Shown: one piece after another, positions 699-8,744 of the stretch
Numbering within the stretch: the first letter of the stretch is position 1
How the letters are laid out: each line of letters opens with the position of its first letter
Source: a virus
Direction: 5' to 3' (one strand)
Virus genome (UHGV): UHGV-2175977
Length of the DNA: 17,361 bases
Notes under the pieces: generated by a model
Told to the model about the DNA's origin: nothing
Seen by the model: only the letters and a program-made list of their open reading frames with translations
Database searches by the model: none
Made by a program: the position numbers and the translations under genes

Positions 699-720
699 TG
701 GTTATCAAATAACCAGTTTT
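694..720. terminator. Bidirectional intrinsic terminator shared by convergent ompW and int
   Basis: Perfect 11-bp inverted repeat AAAACTGGTTA (694-704) / TAACCAGTTTT (710-720) with 5-nt loop; A-run on one side, T-run on the other; int stop codon lies in the loop. Confidence 0.5.
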
Positions 721-1835
721 TTCCACTCTTTACCGCGTGCGTCGTTGTAAATATCGGTCATTTTTTGATTCGAATGGCCCAGCAAAATTTTGGTATCAAT
801 TCCCTGTTCTCTGAACAATCGTTCTGATAAAGATCTTTGCTCATGGAAAGAGGGTGGCGTGCCATTAGCACGCCAGTTGTAATCCACAGAATCCCGGGCT
901 TTTTTAAATGCGACTGTTAATGTTGCTGGTTTAACCATCCCGCCGCGCTTACCCATCCCCTTAGCGTGATGATGGTGCAATAACCACGGACTAAGGATGT
1001 AATCACGACAGGATGACACCACGTCACCCAGGGTAAGATTTAATTTGTCGCAACGCAGAGCCAGAGGAATGGCTATCCGGGCTCCTGTTTTTTGCTGTTC
1101 GACATGAAGGTAACCATCCCGGATATCCGAAAACTGCATTTTGCAAATATCCGAAAGACGCTGGCCCGTCATCAGTGCCAGCAGCATGCCGCGCTGTAAA
1201 AAGTAACCATCCTTTTCCGCTGCGTTATAAATCATCATCCACTCATCAAAAGTCAGTCGCTGTCTTGATATCCGCACTTGCGGTTTTTTTGCCGATTCAG
1301 CCGGGTTAAAGCCTGGCGGAACATCACCCGTTTGTTGAGCCTCCCGGAAAACATCGATCAATACCTTCCTGAAAATTTGTCCCATTCTGTTATGTCCCTT
1401 TGCCTTGTATTCTTCCAGCACCGATACCACATCTTTTACGGTTATGGCATCTAGCGGCCTGGCTCCAAAACGTTCATCAAACACCCTGAGAGGAGCCGCT
1501 TTTTGCTTCAGCGTGCTGAGTTTGATCTCTCCGTTCTCATATCTTTCCTGTTGAATTTTTCTGTAATTATTCAGAAAAATGGAAACGGTTGATGCGCCGC
1601 CGGTATCACTAATAATTTTCTCCTGCAGACTGAGCATTTGCTCCATTTGTTGTCTGGCAAGACGGCTGTTCGCTTCTGCTGCAATGGTTTCCGCCAGTTT
1701 CTGGTCAATACTGCCGAGTCCATGATTTTTACCTGTGGTGGGATGCCTGTAACGCCAGTAAACTTTGTTATTTCTTTTGTCAAAATACGGAGATAAACCC
1801 GGAACATCGGTTTTATATTTTCGCGGGCGCGCCAT
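705..1835 (-). CDS. int: Phage tyrosine integrase (lambda Int family)
   Basis: 376-aa ORF; N-terminal arm-binding-like region, C-terminal catalytic region ending ...LLGHSNQKMTDIYNDARG (the His-x-x-Arg ... Tyr region of tyrosine recombinases); overlapped at its 5' end by an excisionase gene; adjacent to host gene. Confidence 0.9.
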   Translation of the reverse strand: MARPRKYKTDVPGLSPYFDKRNNKVYWRYRHPTTGKNHGLGSIDQKLAETIAAEANSRLARQQMEQMLSLQEKIISDTGGASTVSIFLNNYRKIQQERYENGEIKLSTLKQKAAPLRVFDERFGARPLDAITVKDVVSVLEEYKAKGHNRMGQIFRKVLIDVFREAQQTGDVPPGFNPAESAKKPQVRISRQRLTFDEWMMIYNAAEKDGYFLQRGMLLALMTGQRLSDICKMQFSDIRDGYLHVEQQKTGARIAIPLALRCDKLNLTLGDVVSSCRDYILSPWLLHHHHAKGMGKRGGMVKPATLTVAFKKARDSVDYNWRANGTPPSFHEQRSLSERLFREQGIDTKILLGHSNQKMTDIYNDARGKEWKKLVI

Positions 1836-2061
1836 CTTCCAGTATCCTCTTCAAAGCAGGGTGATCTGTGGCGATCACCTCCGGCTTGTTTACCATTCCG
1901 ACAAAGCGAGCGCGTGGATCCACTCGCCAGTGCCTTCCTACTTTTTTGGGGAGAGGAAATATCATTCCGGCTTTAGCGTATTTACTTAACGTACCCGGAC
2001 TAGGGACCGGTTCACTGAATTCCTCTTTTGCCCACTCAGTGAGCAGAATAAGTCTTGCCAT
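1813..2061 (-). CDS. xis: Excisionase (Xis-like small DNA-binding protein)
   Basis: 82-aa ORF directly upstream of int, overlapping its start by 23 nt; small basic protein in the canonical xis position. Confidence 0.65.
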   Translation of the reverse strand: MARLILLTEWAKEEFSEPVPSPGTLSKYAKAGMIFPLPKKVGRHWRVDPRARFVGMVNKPEVIATDHPALKRILEDGAPAKI

Positions 2062-2125
2062 GAGCGTCGTTCGCTAATCATGGTCGCCGCCACTATAGCC
2101 GGTGGGCGACGACCGGGGTTGAACA

Positions 2126-4579
2126 TTAAAAATCAGCCTGATTCGGGATCAGTTTTTGTATAGCGGCTGTTACGTATTTTGCCTGGTGAAGAGCGTCATC
2201 CAGAGCATTATGGCGCACGCCTTCGAATGGAATTACGCTTCTGGCATTGAAGTCTGTGATTTTCCCCATCTCAACGATTGTGCGTACATCACGATCGTTG
2301 CTGTAATGCCACGGACAGGGGATGTCCAGACGTTCGTATGAGGTGCGCAAAATTGCGTTATCGAACGTTGCGCCATTACCCCACACCTGAACGAATTTTT
2401 CATCAGAGTGTTCATTGACGAATTCCCGAAAACGCAAAAGGGCATCTTTCATTTTTACCTGGTCAGTTAAAATGGCAGCTCTGGCTTCGCTGGACTGCTT
2501 CAGCCACCATTCGATGGTGCCACCATCAGGAACAGCCCCTGTATTCATTGCGTCAGTCAGGCTGATAACGATATAAAATACCGGCCCGATTTCCCCTGTT
2601 TCCGGGTCGAAGAAAACCGCACCAATAACTACTATGGGTGCATTGGTGTTGGTTCCCATTGTTTCAAGGTCGATCATCAGGTGATACCACGTTTTGCTTG
2701 TGGACTTATATTTGTGATGACTGGTTATCTTAATTAAGGGATTTGCCGTCTCGCCAGTTTCACTATCGCTGGCATGATGCTGATTGCCGCCAGAGTTCTC
2801 CTTGTTCTGATGCGCAGAGCCTTCCATTTCCTCTGGATCATTTTCCTGAACTTCAGGCTGATTCTCTTCATCGAACATTTCCTGGTATGTTGCGTCGCCC
2901 ATCACCACGCCACAATCAGGACAGTTGTCGACACCGCTCTGACCGCAGACGGTGCAGACTTTTTCCGGTTCCTGTTGTGCTACTGGTTCGGATTGTTTCG
3001 CTTTTGGCTCTTTTCGTTGCACATTTGGGCTGTTTTGTTCCGCTTTCTGGTCGTTCTGTTCCGATTCTTGCTGGTTCTGGTTCACAGAATCGCGGGTTTC
3101 AATCCCCTTCACCCATTTCGGATCATTCGGGTCGCTAATCCCTTCAGCAAATTCTCCGCCAGAGGTTGCCAGCAATTTGTCTTCGTCGACAGGATTTTGG
3201 GGCGGAATGTTTTTCCGGGATTCATGGAGTTCTGCCCGCAGTTTCTGATATTTCGCATCAACAGAATTCACCTGCGGCTGAGCATCCAGCGGCTGCGTGT
3301 CCGGATGATGTTCAGTTGTATCCGGTTCCACTGTTTCAGTCGTTGGCTGTTCATCTGCCATTGCGCCAGACGGTTGCGGTTTTTCTTCATCATCCTGTTT
3401 TCCTTCTTCTGTTACACGCTGCGGCATTGGGGCAGAGGAACGACCGCAGGCAATATCCACGATTTCCGGATCAGGGTTGGCATGATCGGTTTCGGTCAGC
3501 ACTTTATTCAGGTATTCGGTGACGCGGTGGGGCATAGCCTCTATACCAACCGGTGCTTCTTTCACGGAGGCAACCACGATGGCGCGGGAATAATCCATCC
3601 CGCCTGGCATGTTCAGAAAAGCCTTAAGGAAGACGGAGAAACAGGGATCATTTTCTGCGATAATTTCGTTAACACGTCTGGTATGTGAAGGATGCATGTT
3701 GTAAATATCCACATCCATCGAACGAGCCAGTTTTCCTGTAGCAACATCGAATGCCATTGACGCATTATCATGCACAAAACCTTCGCCGCGATCGGTAAGA
3801 ATACCGCCGCCAGCGTTAGCGCCGGATGGTGTGCGACTGATGCGAGAAACACGATTTCCTTTCATCCACTCTTTTGTAAGCAGACCACGATCAGTGTAGT
3901 CAGCGTCCAGGTATGCTTCGATGAAGGAGGTCATCAGTCCCAGGTCTGAATTTACGGGGGCGGGAAAAACTTTGTCAGTGTCCCGCACCAGTTTGTACAA
4001 ATCCCGAATCTCCAGCGGTTCGAGTTGCGCTGCTTTATTTGAGATGGCCAGCGCGGTAACGGCGGGAAGTTTTTCTTCCTGTGCGTTATGTAATGAGCGC
4101 AGTTCATCCCGCGAAACGTGCGTTACTGGTTTTTCGCCGCCGTGTTGCGCCAGCCAGCGAACAGGCAGAATCTGACCTGAAACCGGCAGAAGCATATTCT
4201 CCTCAATCTCAGTCATGTCTTCGCCATTAACATTGGTGTTGTCAGTGCTGGCTGGTTTGTCCTGCGCGGATGGCGGAGGCGCGATAAATATCATTGTGAT
4301 GCCATCTTCGCCGCCTTTTTCATACCGGTTACAGAATTCGGTATCAAACACGCCTTCCGGTGGAAGGTCATCAACAACGGGCAAATGGACGCGAACAGGT
4401 TTTTTAAAGTCGTCTTCATCATAATCGTTATCATCCATTGCGGTAATGCAGCGGGAGATGGCAACAGATAATTTTTTTGCTGTAGTCCAGTAAAAACCAC
4501 CTTTAATCCCAAGGCGTTTTCTGACTTTGTCATTTTTAGCTTCGCAATATAGCGCAAAAGTTTCTTTATCAGTGCTCAT
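2126..4579 (-). CDS. RecE-like exodeoxyribonuclease VIII homolog with C-terminal DEDDh (DnaQ-like) 3'-5' exonuclease domain
   Basis: 817-aa ORF, GAGG RBS 8 nt upstream. N-terminal and central parts ([19 protein letters not shown]..., acidic/Gln-rich linker, CxxC...CPDC) resemble recalled E. coli RecE; C-terminal ~190 aa carry motifs MIDLETMG (Exo I), [12 protein letters not shown] (Exo II), [13 protein letters not shown] (Exo III, H-x4-D). Confidence 0.8.
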
Positions 4580-4698
4580 TGATAAACCTCATTGCTGTTT
4601 TAAGGTTGTGCGAATCCCTGCCATTGCTGGCATATAAGAATCGACCCTTATGTATTTATTAAGCTGAATGTCGTATTGGGTCAGTTATTTATTACAGC

Positions 4699-4920
4699 TC
4701 ACCATGCCTCCGCCTTTACAGGTAAACCATCACGACCGAGGAAGACTTTAATCATGCGGTCAGTAATGCATGTTTTTGTAGTGAAATCACGGATATAAAG
4801 TTTTTGCTTTTCGATATTGTTTGCCGATGCAACATATGTCCGGCCTTCGTAAATAACGTAATCGCCGGGAGTGACGCACTGGCGTGGTATTTCATCGGTT
4901 CCGAAGTGATGAGCAATCAT
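4699..4920 (-). CDS. Kil-like small protein (candidate host cell-division inhibitor, KilR-like)
   Basis: 73-aa ORF with strong AAGGAG RBS 6 nt upstream; same size and position as kilR in the Rac early-left operon; identity by recollection only. Confidence 0.5.
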
Positions 4921-4965
4921 AATAATCTCCTTAATAATTTGTGATATGAAGGAAATTCCAGAAAA

Positions 4966-5517
4966 CTATTTAATACTCAGCAACTGCTCGACGGTCATAT
5001 TTTTAATTGCGCCCCGGTTTATGAGAGTCCATCCCTGCTTTTCCAGATAAAAACGGAAAGTATCCAGAGTACAGACCAGTGCGCCATCAGGAACGGTTTC
5101 GGTGAATTTGATGTAGCCGTGTTCGTCGAAGCGGATAACCAGGGTGCGGCCATCACCCGGGATTATTTTGTCAGCGGGTGTGGTGTTATTCCGGCGCAGT
5201 TCTTCCTCCATGCGGTCGAACTCGGCAATGTAGGCTTCCTTGAATGCAGCGGCCTTTTTGCCGGTGAAGCCCATCACCAGGAAAACGAAGCCGTTTTTGG
5301 TGATTTGGTAGGCATTGTAGGTATTGCCACGGTGCTCGAATTTAACCCGCGAAAAGTTGCTGGTTAAAAAGCGTTCAGAACATTCGAGGGCCTCTATTTT
5401 TTGAACAACATGGTGATGCTGCTTGCCGAAGAATTCTGCGATCGCAATAGACGTAGTGACAGCGCGACCATTTTCAATGGTTACGTCAGGGTGAGAAAGG
5501 GTAAGGGTAGTAGCCAT
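4966..5517 (-). CDS. Rha-family phage regulatory protein (antirepressor-like)
   Basis: ORF track gives 4966..5814, but an intrinsic terminator lies inside the 5' extension. ATG at 5517 has a GAGGA RBS 7 nt upstream and starts the conserved MATTLTLSHPDVTIENGRAVTTSIAIAEFFGKQHHHVVQKIEAL block (Phage_pRha-like). Confidence 0.6.
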   Translation of the reverse strand: MATTLTLSHPDVTIENGRAVTTSIAIAEFFGKQHHHVVQKIEALECSERFLTSNFSRVKFEHRGNTYNAYQITKNGFVFLVMGFTGKKAAAFKEAYIAEFDRMEEELRRNNTTPADKIIPGDGRTLVIRFDEHGYIKFTETVPDGALVCTLDTFRFYLEKQGWTLINRGAIKNMTVEQLLSIK

Positions 5518-5684
5518 GATGGCATCCTCAAGTGTTAAGTTAATTAACTCACCACCGAGGCTTTCCACGACCATAAGGGTGGCGAGACGTACAGGGGTGG
5601 AAATACCGGTCACTCGAGAACCCGGCCAGCCTTGCAGCTGCCCTGCACGCCCCACCATTATCTGAATGTGGCTGTGCATTACGC

Positions 5685-5709
5685 ATAAAAAAACCGCTTC
5701 GGCGCGGTT
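5685..5709 (-). terminator. Intrinsic terminator for leftward transcription (tL-like)
   Basis: On the minus strand AACCGC-gccgaa-GCGGTT hairpin followed by TTTTTTTAT (plus-strand 5685-5709). Confidence 0.5.
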
Positions 5710-5964
5710 ATGCGCTCGAGTAACTTTCGGGTTTCCACGCCCGGCACCCGTTTTATGAGGTGCAGGTGCACTATAATTCCACCCGTACTGGTTTTCAATA
5801 GCTACATTCAACATTTTCTCTTACCTTTCATCACCGAAGTGAACTTTGTTGATGCGGTACCTGGTGCCTCCAGGCGACGTTAACCAGTCTGTGTCCGGCG
5901 CACGCACTCCACCTCACCCGTGGAGAAGTCATTAATTACCAACCCTGGCCTTGTTGATTAGCTG

Positions 5965-6183
5965 TTAACGCGGGTATGTAATCATTCTGGCAATGCTTAA
6001 TGCCGCTGCTTTTTCCAGCCTGGTGATATCCTGCTCCAGAGCTGACAGATTTTCAGCCTCCTTAGCCCTGGCTTCATTGGCCCACTTCAGGTCCTGCGCA
6101 GCCTGAATTTTCCGGCGCATCCACTCATAAAGTTCATCATCGGTATAGTCTGGCGAGATGATGACGGGTTCTCGCTTCTGCAT
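5965..6183 (-). CDS. Hypothetical small early-left protein
   Basis: 72-aa ORF, first gene downstream of the leftward promoter/operator cluster; charged, predicted helical (…KEAENLSALEQDITRLEKAAALS). Confidence 0.45.
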   Translation of the reverse strand: MQKREPVIISPDYTDDELYEWMRRKIQAAQDLKWANEARAKEAENLSALEQDITRLEKAAALSIARMITYPR

Positions 6184-6366
6184 ACTGATTTCTCTCAGTG
6201 CTGTTTCCCCTTAACGCCGGGGTAGCGGAACAAAAACCTGCTGCATAGTTAAAGTTAAACCCTGCCGTCATGTTCATACGCCTCGGGCTGGCTACTTAAC
6301 CCCTGACCACTGCCTGGTAACTCGAAGTATTGCCCTGCGTTCTGTGGGGCGGGGTAGGTTGGCAGG

Positions 6367-6413
6367 TATATAATGTACTTTGCGTTCAGTGTTGTAAAGT
6401 ACCTTAAGTACAT
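6367..6413 (-). promoter_or_regulatory. Leftward early promoter (PL-like) with three GTAC-core operator-like sites
   Basis: Minus-strand -35 TTTACA (plus 6393-6398) and -10 CATTAT (plus 6370-6375), 17-nt spacer; ATGTACT at 6373-6379, AAAGTACC at 6396-6403, AAGTACAT at 6406-6413 overlap the promoter elements. Confidence 0.4.
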
Positions 6414-6487
6414 TTTGTGTGTAAAAAAATGAGATGGAAAAAGTGAAGCACAAACCCGGAGGGGGGCGCTACCGGATTTATGCTGGT

Positions 6488-6907
6488 TTAAGAGGCTTTT
6501 TGTTTTTTCTTTCGTGCTAACTCTTCGTAAATTGCATTGTACTTCTGTTTTTTCTCCTCAAGAGTTTTTAAAAGTTCATCTGTCTCACTGTCAGGGAGCT
6601 CGTCCAGAAGGTCAATGATGATTTTTTGTCTTGGATTTAACTCCTGATAGAAACGTACCTGTCCACTTTCTTCTGTATCCTCTCCCAAAAGATAGGTTGG
6701 TGTTGTTCCAATGAGTGTTGCTAATTCCCTTAATTTCTCTCGGCGAGGAATTGTTTCGCCATTAAACCATTTGCTAACCGCTTTTGGTGTTAATTTCATT
6801 CGACGGGCAATTTCTGCCTGCCTTCCATGTTGTTCATAACCAGCGTTTTCACAGGCTAGCGCAAGCCTACTGGCGAACTCTTTACGCGCTTTATCTTCAT
6901 GAACCAT
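6488..6907 (-). CDS. Prophage repressor, XRE/CI-like HTH, no peptidase domain (RacR-like)
   Basis: 139-aa ORF divergent from a cro-like gene; HTH segment GRQAEIARRMKLTPKAVSKWFNGETIP; charged coiled-coil-like C-terminus; no Ser-Lys protease motif. Confidence 0.8.
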   Translation of the reverse strand: MVHEDKARKEFASRLALACENAGYEQHGRQAEIARRMKLTPKAVSKWFNGETIPRREKLRELATLIGTTPTYLLGEDTEESGQVRFYQELNPRQKIIIDLLDELPDSETDELLKTLEEKKQKYNAIYEELARKKKQKAS

Positions 6908-6927
6908 AAGTTCAATGATATTCGCTC

Positions 6928-6962
6928 TTGAATGTACTGTCAGTTCTGTTATAGCATGTACT
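6928..6962 (+). promoter_or_regulatory. Rightward early promoter (PR-like) with two ATGTACT operator-like repeats
   Basis: -35 TTGAAT (6928-6933), -10-like TATAGC (6950-6955); ATGTACT at 6932-6938 and 6956-6962, 24 bp apart, within the 79-bp divergent intergenic region. Confidence 0.4.
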
Positions 6963-6986
6963 CAAAGTTCACATTGTGAGGGTGAT

Positions 6987-7241
6987 ATGAACCAGAAAAC
7001 ACTTGAAGATGTAATCAAAACTGTTCGCGTTTCTGTTGTGGCCGACGTTTGTGGTGTCAGCCAAAGAGCAATCTACAAATGGATGGATAACGGAAAATTG
7101 CCTCGCACAGAATATACCGGCGAAACAAATTACGCTGAAAAAATCGCTCATGCATCAAACGGATTATTTTCTGCCGATGCAATTTTAACTATTGGCAGAA
7201 ATAAAACTACTACGAAAAAGCTGATGGGAGTTGATTCATGA
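6987..7241 (+). CDS. Cro/YdaS-like HTH regulator
   Basis: ORF track starts at 6915; ATG at 6987 has a GAGGGTG RBS and gives MNQKTLEDV... with HTH VVADVCGVSQRAIYKWMDNGKLP; divergent from repressor. Confidence 0.7.
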   Translation: MNQKTLEDVIKTVRVSVVADVCGVSQRAIYKWMDNGKLPRTEYTGETNYAEKIAHASNGLFSADAILTIGRNKTTTKKLMGVDS

Positions 7242-7663
7242 AAATCAAGCATGAGCATATCCGCATGGCGATGAATGCCTGGGCGCGTCCGGATGGTGAA
7301 AAAGTTCCGGCAGCTGAAATAACCAGGGTTTATTTCGAGCTGGGCATGACGTTTCCTGAGCTGTACGACGACAGCCATCCGGAAGCCCTGGCCCGTAATA
7401 CCCAGAAAATTTTCCGCTGGGTGGAGAAAGACACCCCTGATGCGGTTGAAAAAATTCAGGCGTTACTACCAGCGATCGAAAAGGCAATGCCGCCTTTGCT
7501 GGTGGCCAGAATGCGTAGCCACAGCTCAGCCTATTTCAGGGAGCTGCTGGAGACACGAGAACGGCTGGTGAGAGACGCTGATGATTTTATCGCAGTGGCA
7601 ATCGCCGGTTTCAATCAGATGAATCGTGGTGGCCCGGCGGGTAATGCTGTGGTGATGCACTGA
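7238..7663 (+). CDS. YdaT-like (CII-like) early regulator
   Basis: 141-aa ORF, start overlaps upstream stop (ATGA); positional equivalent of ydaT after racR-ydaS; assignment positional plus recollection. Confidence 0.5.
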   Translation: MKIKHEHIRMAMNAWARPDGEKVPAAEITRVYFELGMTFPELYDDSHPEALARNTQKIFRWVEKDTPDAVEKIQALLPAIEKAMPPLLVARMRSHSSAYFRELLETRERLVRDADDFIAVAIAGFNQMNRGGPAGNAVVMH

Positions 7664-7733
7664 CTGGCAATAGTTATACCGGATCGCTTTCGGTAGTACG
7701 TGATTAAGGAATTCGGTATCAGAAGAGGCAATT

Positions 7734-8744
7734 ATGGCCGCATTACCATACATGCAACTGTACATCGCTGATTACCTGGCTGACACCATGCATTTATCAG
7801 CAGAGGAGCACGGTGCGTATTTGTTGCTGATGTTCAATTACTGGCAAACAGGAAAGCCAATACCTAAAAACAGGCTGGCAAAAATTGCCCGTCTGACTAA
7901 TGAGCGATGGGCTGATGTGGAGCCATCCTTGCGGGAGTTTTTTCACGATAACGGCGATGAATGGGTGCATCTTCGGATTGAGGAAGATCTGGCATCAGTC
8001 AGGGAAAAATTAACCAAAAAATCAGCCGCCGGAAAAGCATCTGTTCAGGCCAGAAGAAGCAGAAAGGAAGCAGATGTTCAAACAAAACAAGAGAGAGATT
8101 TAACAGGTGTTCAAACAAATGTTGGTGTGGTGTTTGAACATAACGCAAACACAAAGGCAACTAATAAAGATACAGATAAAGAATTAAACCCCACACATAA
8201 CGCGCGCGTGCGCGAGAGTGCTCCGACCAGTGAACCGAACGGTACGCCGTTGCAGGTGGCGGAACCTGAATTTCCGGATGGCCTGAGTGAACCCATCGGG
8301 AAATTTCCGATGGCCGATGGCTGGCATCCGTCGCTGGATTTTCGACGACGGGCTGCGTTGTGGGGAGCGGCTTTGCCGGAACCGGAATTTACACCTGCTG
8401 AACTTGCCGCCTTCCGGGATTACTGGATGGCGGAGGGGAAAGTGTTCACACAGGTTCAGTGGGAGCAGAAATTCGCCCGTCACGTAAATCACGTCAGGGC
8501 GCAGGTTAAACCAGTCAGCAAGGGGGTGAACCATGCAGCAGCACCAGGTGGCACCGCATCACGGGCAGTTCAGGAAATTCGGGCAGCACGTGAGCAGTGG
8601 GAACGTGAAAACGGATTTATCAGCGACGGAAACAGCCTGGAAGCTGTGGGAACTCATGGGGGAGGTTTATTCGGACCGCTGGACCCGGAAGAACGGGGCC
8701 GCACCTTCGAAGCTCTGGATTGCACAGATTGGCGCGATGACTGA
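7734..8744 (+). CDS. Replication initiation-associated protein, DUF1376/YdaU-like with DnaT-like C-terminal region
   Basis: 336-aa ORF; N-terminus MAALPYMQLYIADYLADTMHLSAEEHGAYLLLMFNYW fits recalled DUF1376 motif; first gene of replication module. Confidence 0.7.
   Translation: MAALPYMQLYIADYLADTMHLSAEEHGAYLLLMFNYWQTGKPIPKNRLAKIARLTNERWADVEPSLREFFHDNGDEWVHLRIEEDLASVREKLTKKSAAGKASVQARRSRKEADVQTKQERDLTGVQTNVGVVFEHNANTKATNKDTDKELNPTHNARVRESAPTSEPNGTPLQVAEPEFPDGLSEPIGKFPMADGWHPSLDFRRRAALWGAALPEPEFTPAELAAFRDYWMAEGKVFTQVQWEQKFARHVNHVRAQVKPVSKGVNHAAAPGGTASRAVQEIRAAREQWERENGFISDGNSLEAVGTHGGGLFGPLDPEERGRTFEALDCTDWRDD

Follow-up and report, generated by a model that had tools for sequence, protein, structure and literature searches.

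What does a RecE-like exonuclease do for a phage when it has neither the nuclease domain of RecE nor a RecT partner? The question is raised by a gene in UHGV virus genome UHGV-2175977, of which we analysed a stretch of 17,361 nucleotides (the window). Several RefSeq Escherichia coli chromosomes from chickens match the window at 100% identity, and there it makes up the left arm of a lambdoid prophage of 47.4 kb, inserted into ompW at its 3' end. Directly upstream of the excisionase gene xis lies an open reading frame (ORF) whose 817-residue product is identical to RefSeq WP_059327931.1. PGAP names this protein '3'-5' exonuclease'; where it recurs in other records, unchanged or nearly so, the name given is 'exonuclease' or 'RecE family exodeoxyribonuclease'. 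We found that it joins the front of RecE to a DEDDh head resembling T4 DexA, which is predicted to be a 3'-5' exonuclease.

The nuclease domain of RecE is replaced by a DEDDh domain

By BLASTP, the protein is 70% identical to K-12 RecE (b1350) over residues 58–616, which correspond to RecE 50–591, and no alignment was found past RecE residue 591. Pfam placed an Exonuc_VIII match (PF06630) at residues 57–189 (E 1.1e-26), in agreement with the initial annotation, which had described the first ~600 residues as RecE-like. At the DNA level, blastn homology to the recE gene of Rac ends sharply at window position 2733. In K-12 RecE, Pfam recovered PF06630 together with PF12684, a PDDEXK-like family, at residues 615–850 (E 4e-28); the same search found no match to PF12684 in the 817-residue protein. 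The nuclease domain of RecE has been placed at residues 564–866, and the N-terminal part is described as 'of unknown function' (PMC11611040). That the homology to RecE ends where the PD-(D/E)XK domain of RecE begins suggests that the catalytic domain was swapped out whole, with a DEDDh domain now standing in the place of PF12684 (RecE ~592–866).

The same break is seen with PRK09709, the NCBIfam equivalog for exoVIII. Residues 1–633 of the protein match this profile, covering positions 1–620 of 877 only, and the score of 1018 bits lies under the curated cut-off of 1269, so that the protein does not qualify as a full-length exoVIII. The 817-residue protein and RecE share their first ~616 residues, including PF06630, the helical core, the acidic linker and a CxxC..CxxC motif, and they share a gene slot in the early-left operon between kil and xis. 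They differ in the nuclease domain, in the absence of recT, ralR or rcbA downstream of the 817-residue gene, and in their predicted polarity, which would be 3'-5' here as opposed to 5'-3' in RecE. In the functional sense the protein falls outside RecE/exoVIII: it has no PD-(D/E)XK domain and no recT partner, and it scores under the equivalog cut-off.

What stands at the C-terminus is a strong match to PF16473, the Rv2179c-like 3'-5' exoribonuclease family, over residues 633–805 (E 1.3e-67, profile positions 2–175 of 177), with a score of 227.4 bits against a gathering cut-off of 27. The initial annotation had assigned the last ~190 residues, encoded at about 2129–2700, to a DEDDh rather than a PD-(D/E)XK domain, on the basis of DLE, FD and H-x4-D motifs. 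This assignment stood. All of the motifs (D637-L-E639, F739-D740 and H790-x4-D795) are present and occupy columns that are invariant across the family, T4 DexA included; the domain maps closely to the DNA proposed (Table 1); and neither Pfam nor BLASTP aligned it to the PD-(D/E)XK fold of RecE. Of 133 fused homologs, at least 130 keep the five catalytic residues, as do 69–70 of 70 stand-alone homologs.

We next compared the predicted fold of the head with known structures. In an AlphaFold2 model built from a 125-sequence alignment, the predicted local distance difference test (pLDDT) score exceeds 94 over residues 633–810. Structural comparison, like the domain search a check that the initial annotation had named, placed T4 DexA first when this predicted model was used as a Foldseek query against the PDB (8KEL/8KEN, E 3e-9, template modelling score 0.68–0.75), followed by RNase T, REXO2/oligoribonuclease (Orn) and the ERI nucleases. 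DexA was also the sole match in a sequence search of the PDB (E 1.5e-8), and a Foldseek search of the PDB with the whole protein gave matches confined to the DEDDh domain. The likeness to DexA covers the C-terminal 185 residues and all five DEDDh residues. Identity is only 24–28%, however, and DexA is a stand-alone protein of 227 residues with extra loops, whereas here the domain is the head of a much longer protein.

The structure of DexA has been solved, and both DexA and a stand-alone E. coli homolog, EcD ('HREX', HAK9828821.1), are 3'-5' DNA exonucleases by experiment; EcD protects against T4 when it is expressed from a plasmid (PMC12153337). A Trp pair and an acidic residue have been tied to recognition of 5-hydroxymethylcytosine (5hmC), and EcD is without the equivalent of DexA D90, having Ala there in a dimer-only form (PMC12153337). 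In the 817-residue protein, W691/W692 and E786 align to the 5hmC-linked residues and are kept in 131–133 of 133 fused homologs, and D712 aligns with DexA D90 in an alignment at 28% identity only. EcD shares the DEDDh family and the E. coli host with the present protein, but it is stand-alone and reportedly without the Asp at D90, whereas the present protein is a fusion with an aligned Asp. Taken together, the 817-residue protein agrees with PF16473 in every feature of sequence and predicted fold, and it would work like a DexA-type DEDDh exonuclease.

The AlphaFold2 model resolves four regions, namely two N-terminal folded domains, a linker and the DEDDh head (Table 1). The acidic linker is also present in RecE and in the Tritos-type variant described below. 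It contains a CxxC-x7-CxxC motif that may bind metal, in a part of the model where confidence is low. The only tandem repeat in the gene is a trivial one of 21 bp x 2.3 within the linker. A 304-residue antisense ORF (2774–3688, +) we regard as a by-product of the low-complexity acidic linker.

Table 1. Features of the exonuclease gene and its surroundings, with window coordinates. Ratios of nonsynonymous to synonymous substitution (dN/dS) are pairwise values against fused homologs.
Feature	Position	Strand	dN/dS	Basis or remark
817-residue RecE-N::DEDDh exonuclease	2126..4579	(-)		Complete gene, ATG start; ORF listing, Pfam, RefSeq identity
Domain 1, residues 1–103	4271..4579	(-)	0.08–0.13	Small alpha/beta; AlphaFold2 pLDDT >85; no known fold relative
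Domain 2, residues 121–390	3410..4219	(-)	0.17–0.33	All-helical; conserved core common with RecE (80% identity to K-12 RecE)
Acidic linker, residues 391–632 (~240 residues)	2684..3409	(-)	0.36–0.54	Predicted disordered; pLDDT <50, composition
CxxC-x7-CxxC, C542..C556	2912..2956	(-)		Zinc-ribbon-like, within linker; kept in K-12 RecE
Mosaic junction, residue 616 = RecE 591	2731..2733	(-)		blastn, BLASTP
DEDDh 3'-5' exonuclease domain (predicted), residues 633–817	2129..2683	(-)	0.12–0.23	Rv2179c-like / T4 DexA type
Catalytic codon D637	2669–2671	(-)		
Catalytic codon E639	2663–2665	(-)		
Catalytic codon D740	2360–2362	(-)		
Catalytic codon H790	2210–2212	(-)		
Catalytic codon D795	2195–2197	(-)		
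Integrase	705..1835	(-)		ompW-site prophage
Excisionase (xis)	1813..2061	(-)		Next gene downstream
kil (FtsZ inhibitor)	4699..4920	(-)		Next gene upstream, early-left operon
Five top-strand Chi (7498, 10190, 12298, 12699, 17287)	7498..17294	(+)		3–13 kb left of cos

No annealase is found in the prophage

Between the stop of the exonuclease gene (2126) and the start of xis (2061) are 64 nt without an ORF, which leaves no room for recT and bears out the initial annotation, which had seen no RecT-like gene in this interval. The absence of an annealase held for the rest of the prophage as well. PGAP annotates none across its whole length, and none was found by PHROG scans of 20 prophage ORFs, mostly hypothetical or poorly named. 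A six-frame tblastn search of the whole prophage with nine seed proteins (RecT, lambda Bet, Exo and Gam, two Erf-like proteins, one Sak4-like protein, the single-stranded DNA-binding protein SSB and the RecE nuclease domain) returned nothing below E 0.3. By PGAP, PHROG and tblastn, then, the 47.4-kb prophage lacks an annealase, an SSB and Gam, and it has no 5'-3' exonuclease of either the lambda Exo or the RecE type.

The prophage matches nuclease-only Rec modules and carries Chi sites

DnaQ-like nucleases are among the components of lambdoid Rec modules described in a 2025 Genome Research paper (PMC12315714). Its class B 'Tritos' type consists of a nuclease with no single-strand annealing protein (SAP), SSB or anti-RecBCD gene, and comprises four phages with 7–21 top-strand Chi sites (PMC12315714, Table 1 of that paper). 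The main text of the paper does not assign the Tritos nuclease among its four nuclease types and does not describe the fusion. We found that the Tritos nuclease, TRITO_27, is a homolog of the 817-residue protein, with 70% identity over residues 465–816, which span the linker and the head. The likeness extends to the slot (dicB-ydfD-exo-xis-int), to the absence of a SAP, SSB or anti-RecBCD gene and to the presence of multiple top-strand Chi sites in both. The difference lies at the N-terminus, which is not PF06630 in Tritos, whereas the 817-residue protein has a RecE-like front.

Chi (GCTGGTGG) occurs six times on the top strand and three times on the bottom strand of the 47.4-kb prophage, where base composition predicts ~1.2 per strand. 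The window contains eight Chi sites, compared with 0.54 ± 0.74 in dinucleotide-preserving shuffles; besides the five top-strand sites of Table 1, these lie at 12831 and 12877 (-) and, within ompW, at 144 (+). Five of the six top-strand sites of the prophage lie no more than 13 kb left of terS/cos, where the packaged genome has its right end, with cos placed from terS. They cluster in the replication/nin/lysis region, as has been reported for lambdoid phages without anti-RecBCD functions. In both gene content and Chi sites, the prophage matches the published Tritos-type nuclease-only Rec module.

The fusion is widespread in E. coli and under purifying selection

The initial annotation implied that the gene was rare, and this was not borne out. 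The gene is ordinary in E. coli prophages, its domain is already annotated and the genomic class with a nuclease only is already published; a literature search found no paper describing the RecE-N::DEDDh fusion as such. A megablast search with the DNA of the C-terminal module matched at least 1412 of 5426 complete E. coli genomes; many of the matches are just 75–80% identical, so that this figure is a lower bound. The canonical recE 3' end with recT is present in 1750 of the 5426. In a protein search, the PF06630+PF16473 architecture was found in all 120 matches listed, of 8000 scored, and most of these 120 bear the names '3'-5' exoribonuclease' or 'exonuclease'. Full-length homologs are carried by inducible or isolated phages, including vB_EcoS-689R5, 640R1, 813R8, 606R7, Stx2a-converting phages, Evi and Tritos. 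We inspected nine further loci, six on E. coli chromosomes (O157:H7 and O26 among them) and three in phage records, with integration at the ompW site, beside potC and at other sites; all nine have the order int-xis-exo-(kil or DUF1482-dicB) and no recT.

Purifying selection acts on the folded domains, where dN/dS lies between 0.08 and 0.33 (Table 1). The gene is also a patchwork: domain 1 is nearest to one set of alleles (94%), domain 2 to the O157 allele and K-12 RecE (80–81%), and the head to that of phage Evi (89%). To look further afield we searched representatives clustered at 50% identity, which gave 11,670 clusters at E <1e-3. Here the RecE-N core is fused to DEDDh in many diverged representatives (core identity 25–40%) and to PD-(D/E)XK in others. 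Ten long RecE-N homologs in which we detected neither type of head showed only PF06630 in Pfam, one RecE-N::RecT fusion excepted. In the cluster representative P0123 (703 residues), RecE-N residues 1–528 are joined to the RecT domain PF03837 (E 1e-42), and the nuclease domain is deleted.

A second allele type, of 823–826 residues, places the identical plan of linker and DEDDh head behind a different N-terminus of ~470 residues, for which we detected no RecE similarity and no Pfam match. This Tritos/PPompW-O26/E. albertii type is carried by loci L013, L014, L093 (Tritos), L004 (Evi), L006 and L008. An 812-residue fused homolog was also found on a contig assigned to a Veillonella parvula metagenome-assembled genome (L015), with a C-terminal domain 65% identical by tblastn; this contig is most likely an Escherichia binning contaminant.

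The head occurs as a stand-alone exonuclease in other species

We surveyed the head across species, taking one genome per species, and retrieved 80 loci with a domain alignment. In 74 of these the protein is stand-alone, with a length of ~180–300 residues and mostly of 185–200, and fusions were seen only in Escherichia and a few other Enterobacteriaceae. No RecT lies within 8 kb in any of the 80. The stand-alone proteins resemble the head of the 817-residue protein in their domain (45–61% identical) and, for the mEp460/SfV type and several others, in their place, which is the last one of the early-left operon just before xis/int; they differ in their length of 185–200 residues without a RecE-type front, and some adjoin an annealase and SSB. 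The SfV/mEp460-type early-left operons (L016–L028 and similar, and L005 for mEp460) often end exo-xis-int. DUF2303 was found in such operons in 18 of the 80 loci and a YfbR-like HD 5'-deoxynucleotidase in 15, and the co-occurrence of the stand-alone exonuclease with the HD nucleotidase hints at a tie to nucleotide metabolism.

A module of an Erf- or Sak4-like annealase, SSB and a DEDDh exonuclease was present in six of the 80 loci (L030, L036, L041, L043, L046 and L047), all in prophages of other Enterobacterales and related species. SSB lies between the annealase and the exonuclease in five of the modules and directly downstream of the exonuclease in L047. These modules indicate that the head family does sit in genuine recombination modules elsewhere. 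A conserved coiled-coil protein of 331–401 residues (phrog_1376) precedes the module in L036, L030, L043 and L046.

The protein may trim 3' ends in a phage that relies on host recombination

On its sequence, its predicted fold and the analogy with DexA, we lean, at somewhat better than even confidence, towards the 817-residue protein being a DNA exonuclease that trims 3' ends, in a phage dependent on host RecBCD and RecA, and away from a recombinase of the RecET type. The gene would encode an intact, modular nuclease of the early-left operon, in which the RecE-type folded domains and acidic linker are joined to a DexA/Rv2179c-type head. This head would degrade DNA from the 3' end, like DexA and EcD and with a polarity opposite to that of RecE. 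With 3'-5' polarity the protein could not make 3' tails for a RecT-type annealase, and it would hence not be part of a two-component recombinase of the RecET/Red type. During lytic growth it would trim the 3' ends or tails of linear DNA, and the phage, as one of the nuclease-only (Tritos) type, would recombine through the host RecBCD-Chi pathway and RecA. A possible, though speculative and on balance unlikely, purpose would be to blunt 3'-tailed ends for RecBCD loading, and the N-terminal region might be a common targeting or scaffold module. A bolder version, which is tentative and on balance unlikely, is that RecE-N serves as a general DNA-end- or partner-targeting scaffold for heads of either polarity, the DEDDh version being an end-blunting enzyme that feeds RecBCD-Chi. 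Removal of 3' tails would then hand linear phage DNA to RecBCD, and the Chi sites at the right end would turn RecBCD into a recombinase.

Several points weigh against a 3'-end-trimming enzyme that works with host recombination. The polarity and DNA substrate of the head are predicted from its homologs DexA and EcD, and the Pfam family PF16473 is named after an exoribonuclease. 3'-5' exonucleases and DnaQ-like nucleases usually inhibit homologous recombination (PMC12315714), so that a pro-recombination role is not obvious. With ~1 site per 5 kb, the density of Chi is close to that of the host on average and not above it. We found no fold relative for the N-terminal region, which makes 'targeting module' a guess. 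Finally, this copy of the prophage may be defective and unable to form infectious particles because its tail tape-measure gene (L001 47220–49361 / L003 214–2793) is annotated as a pseudogene with an internal stop; small HNH and hypothetical fragments are present too.

The head could alternatively belong to a defence or superinfection-exclusion nuclease of the HREX kind, cutting the 5hmC DNA of incoming T-even phages and sparing host DNA. The protection against T4 by EcD (PMC12153337) and the retention of W691/W692 and E786 are consistent with this, but the two Trp and the acidic residue are near-universal in the family and so have no power to discriminate. The Asp at D712, where EcD has Ala, argues against it within the limits of an alignment at 28% identity, as do the weak, generic DEDDh match that was all PADLOC returned (E 5e-5) and the position of the gene in a repressed early-left operon with no promoter signal above chance. 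Promoter and terminator counts over 1700–7300 did not exceed those of shuffled sequence. We regard defence as unlikely. Scavenging, by which broken host DNA would be turned into deoxynucleoside monophosphates for phage replication, is one role of DexA in T4 (PMC12153337). The YfbR-like HD 5'-deoxynucleotidase beside the stand-alone homolog in SfV/mEp460-type loci would fit such a role; however, neither PGAP nor PHROG found an HD nucleotidase in the prophage, and scavenging leaves the fusion to the RecE N-terminal region unexplained. Temperate lambdoid phages are not known to break down the host chromosome, and we give scavenging still less credence than defence.

A recombination exonuclease could also be served in trans by an annealase, such as the RecT of a resident Rac, or could work with an annealase that has gone unrecognised. 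The gene does occupy the recE-recT slot of Rac, canonical recET is present in 1750 of 5426 E. coli genomes, as given above, and in other species annealase, SSB and DEDDh exonuclease genes do form modules. But the RecE segment that was retained is without the C-terminal nuclease domain, which is reportedly the part of RecE that binds RecT; 3'-5' resection would give 5' tails, whereas annealases load onto 3' tails; and the cross-species loci had no RecT nearby. We regard a recombination exonuclease of this kind as improbable. An exoribonuclease that attacks RNA from the 3' end would agree with the Pfam (Rv2179c) and NCBI names, and RNase T, Orn/REXO2 and ERI are among the structural neighbours of the head. 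We hold it to be very improbable: in sequence as in fold the head is closest to a DNA exonuclease, DexA, and the genomic slot and neighbour genes are tied to DNA transactions. The selection data strongly disfavour the last possibility, a decaying recE remnant without function. The prophage does hold pseudogenes (the tape-measure gene and an HNH fragment), but this ORF runs to full length, every folded domain shows a dN/dS well below 1, the catalytic residues are kept in ~98% of fused homologs, and inducible phages carry the gene.

Other features of the prophage

From the left, the prophage reads ompW, int, xis, the exonuclease gene, kil, Rha, ydfC, the repressor, and cro-like and cII-like genes. 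It continues with the replication genes, a nin region with ParDE, DUF968 and RusA, then Q, tRNAs, lysis genes, the terminase through to the tail genes, and a remnant of ompW. Within the early-left part, Rfam gathering-level matches to the C4 antisense RNA (5575–5662, -; 73.8 bits) and to the isrK Hfq-binding small RNA (5687–5763, -; 67.2 bits) fall in the first ~80 codons of the ORF that PGAP calls a 'Rha family phage regulatory protein' (4966–5814, -). The region looks like an isrK-C4-antirepressor immunity cassette of the P1/Gifsy type, and the 5' end of the Rha ORF is probably over-extended, its first ~100 residues looking unlike protein.

A ParD/ParE-RelE type II toxin-antitoxin pair (11222–11784, -) lies on the opposite strand inside the nin region. 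Two tRNA genes follow downstream of Q (15370–15445 and 15447–15523, both +); one has a CAT anticodon, which PGAP reads as Ile and ARAGORN as Met, and the other is a tRNA-Arg (TCT). Cargo on the attR side (L003 12901–16557) includes a YadA-like adhesin, a sigma-factor-like helix-turn-helix protein, a DinI-like protein and an ORF6N/anti-repressor gene.

Implications for RecE-like genes in prophages

In many records of phages and genomes, this allele goes under the name 'exodeoxyribonuclease VIII' or 'ds DNA 5'-3' exonuclease'. For the catalytic domain such a label is wrong, and it would mislead the mining of prophages for RecET-type recombineering systems. At least a quarter of complete E. coli genomes carry the allele, O157:H7 and O26 among them, and it also occurs in Stx2a-converting phages. 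The RecE N-terminus is joined naturally to two heads of opposite predicted polarity, and a comparison of these two natural chimeras could show what it targets. Were the end-blunting version true, it would account for nuclease-only modules that travel with Chi enrichment and would give the RecE N-terminus a function. The link to host RecBCD and Chi, if true, would supply a mechanistic piece for a recently proposed class of lambdoid phages that uses, rather than blocks, host recombination.

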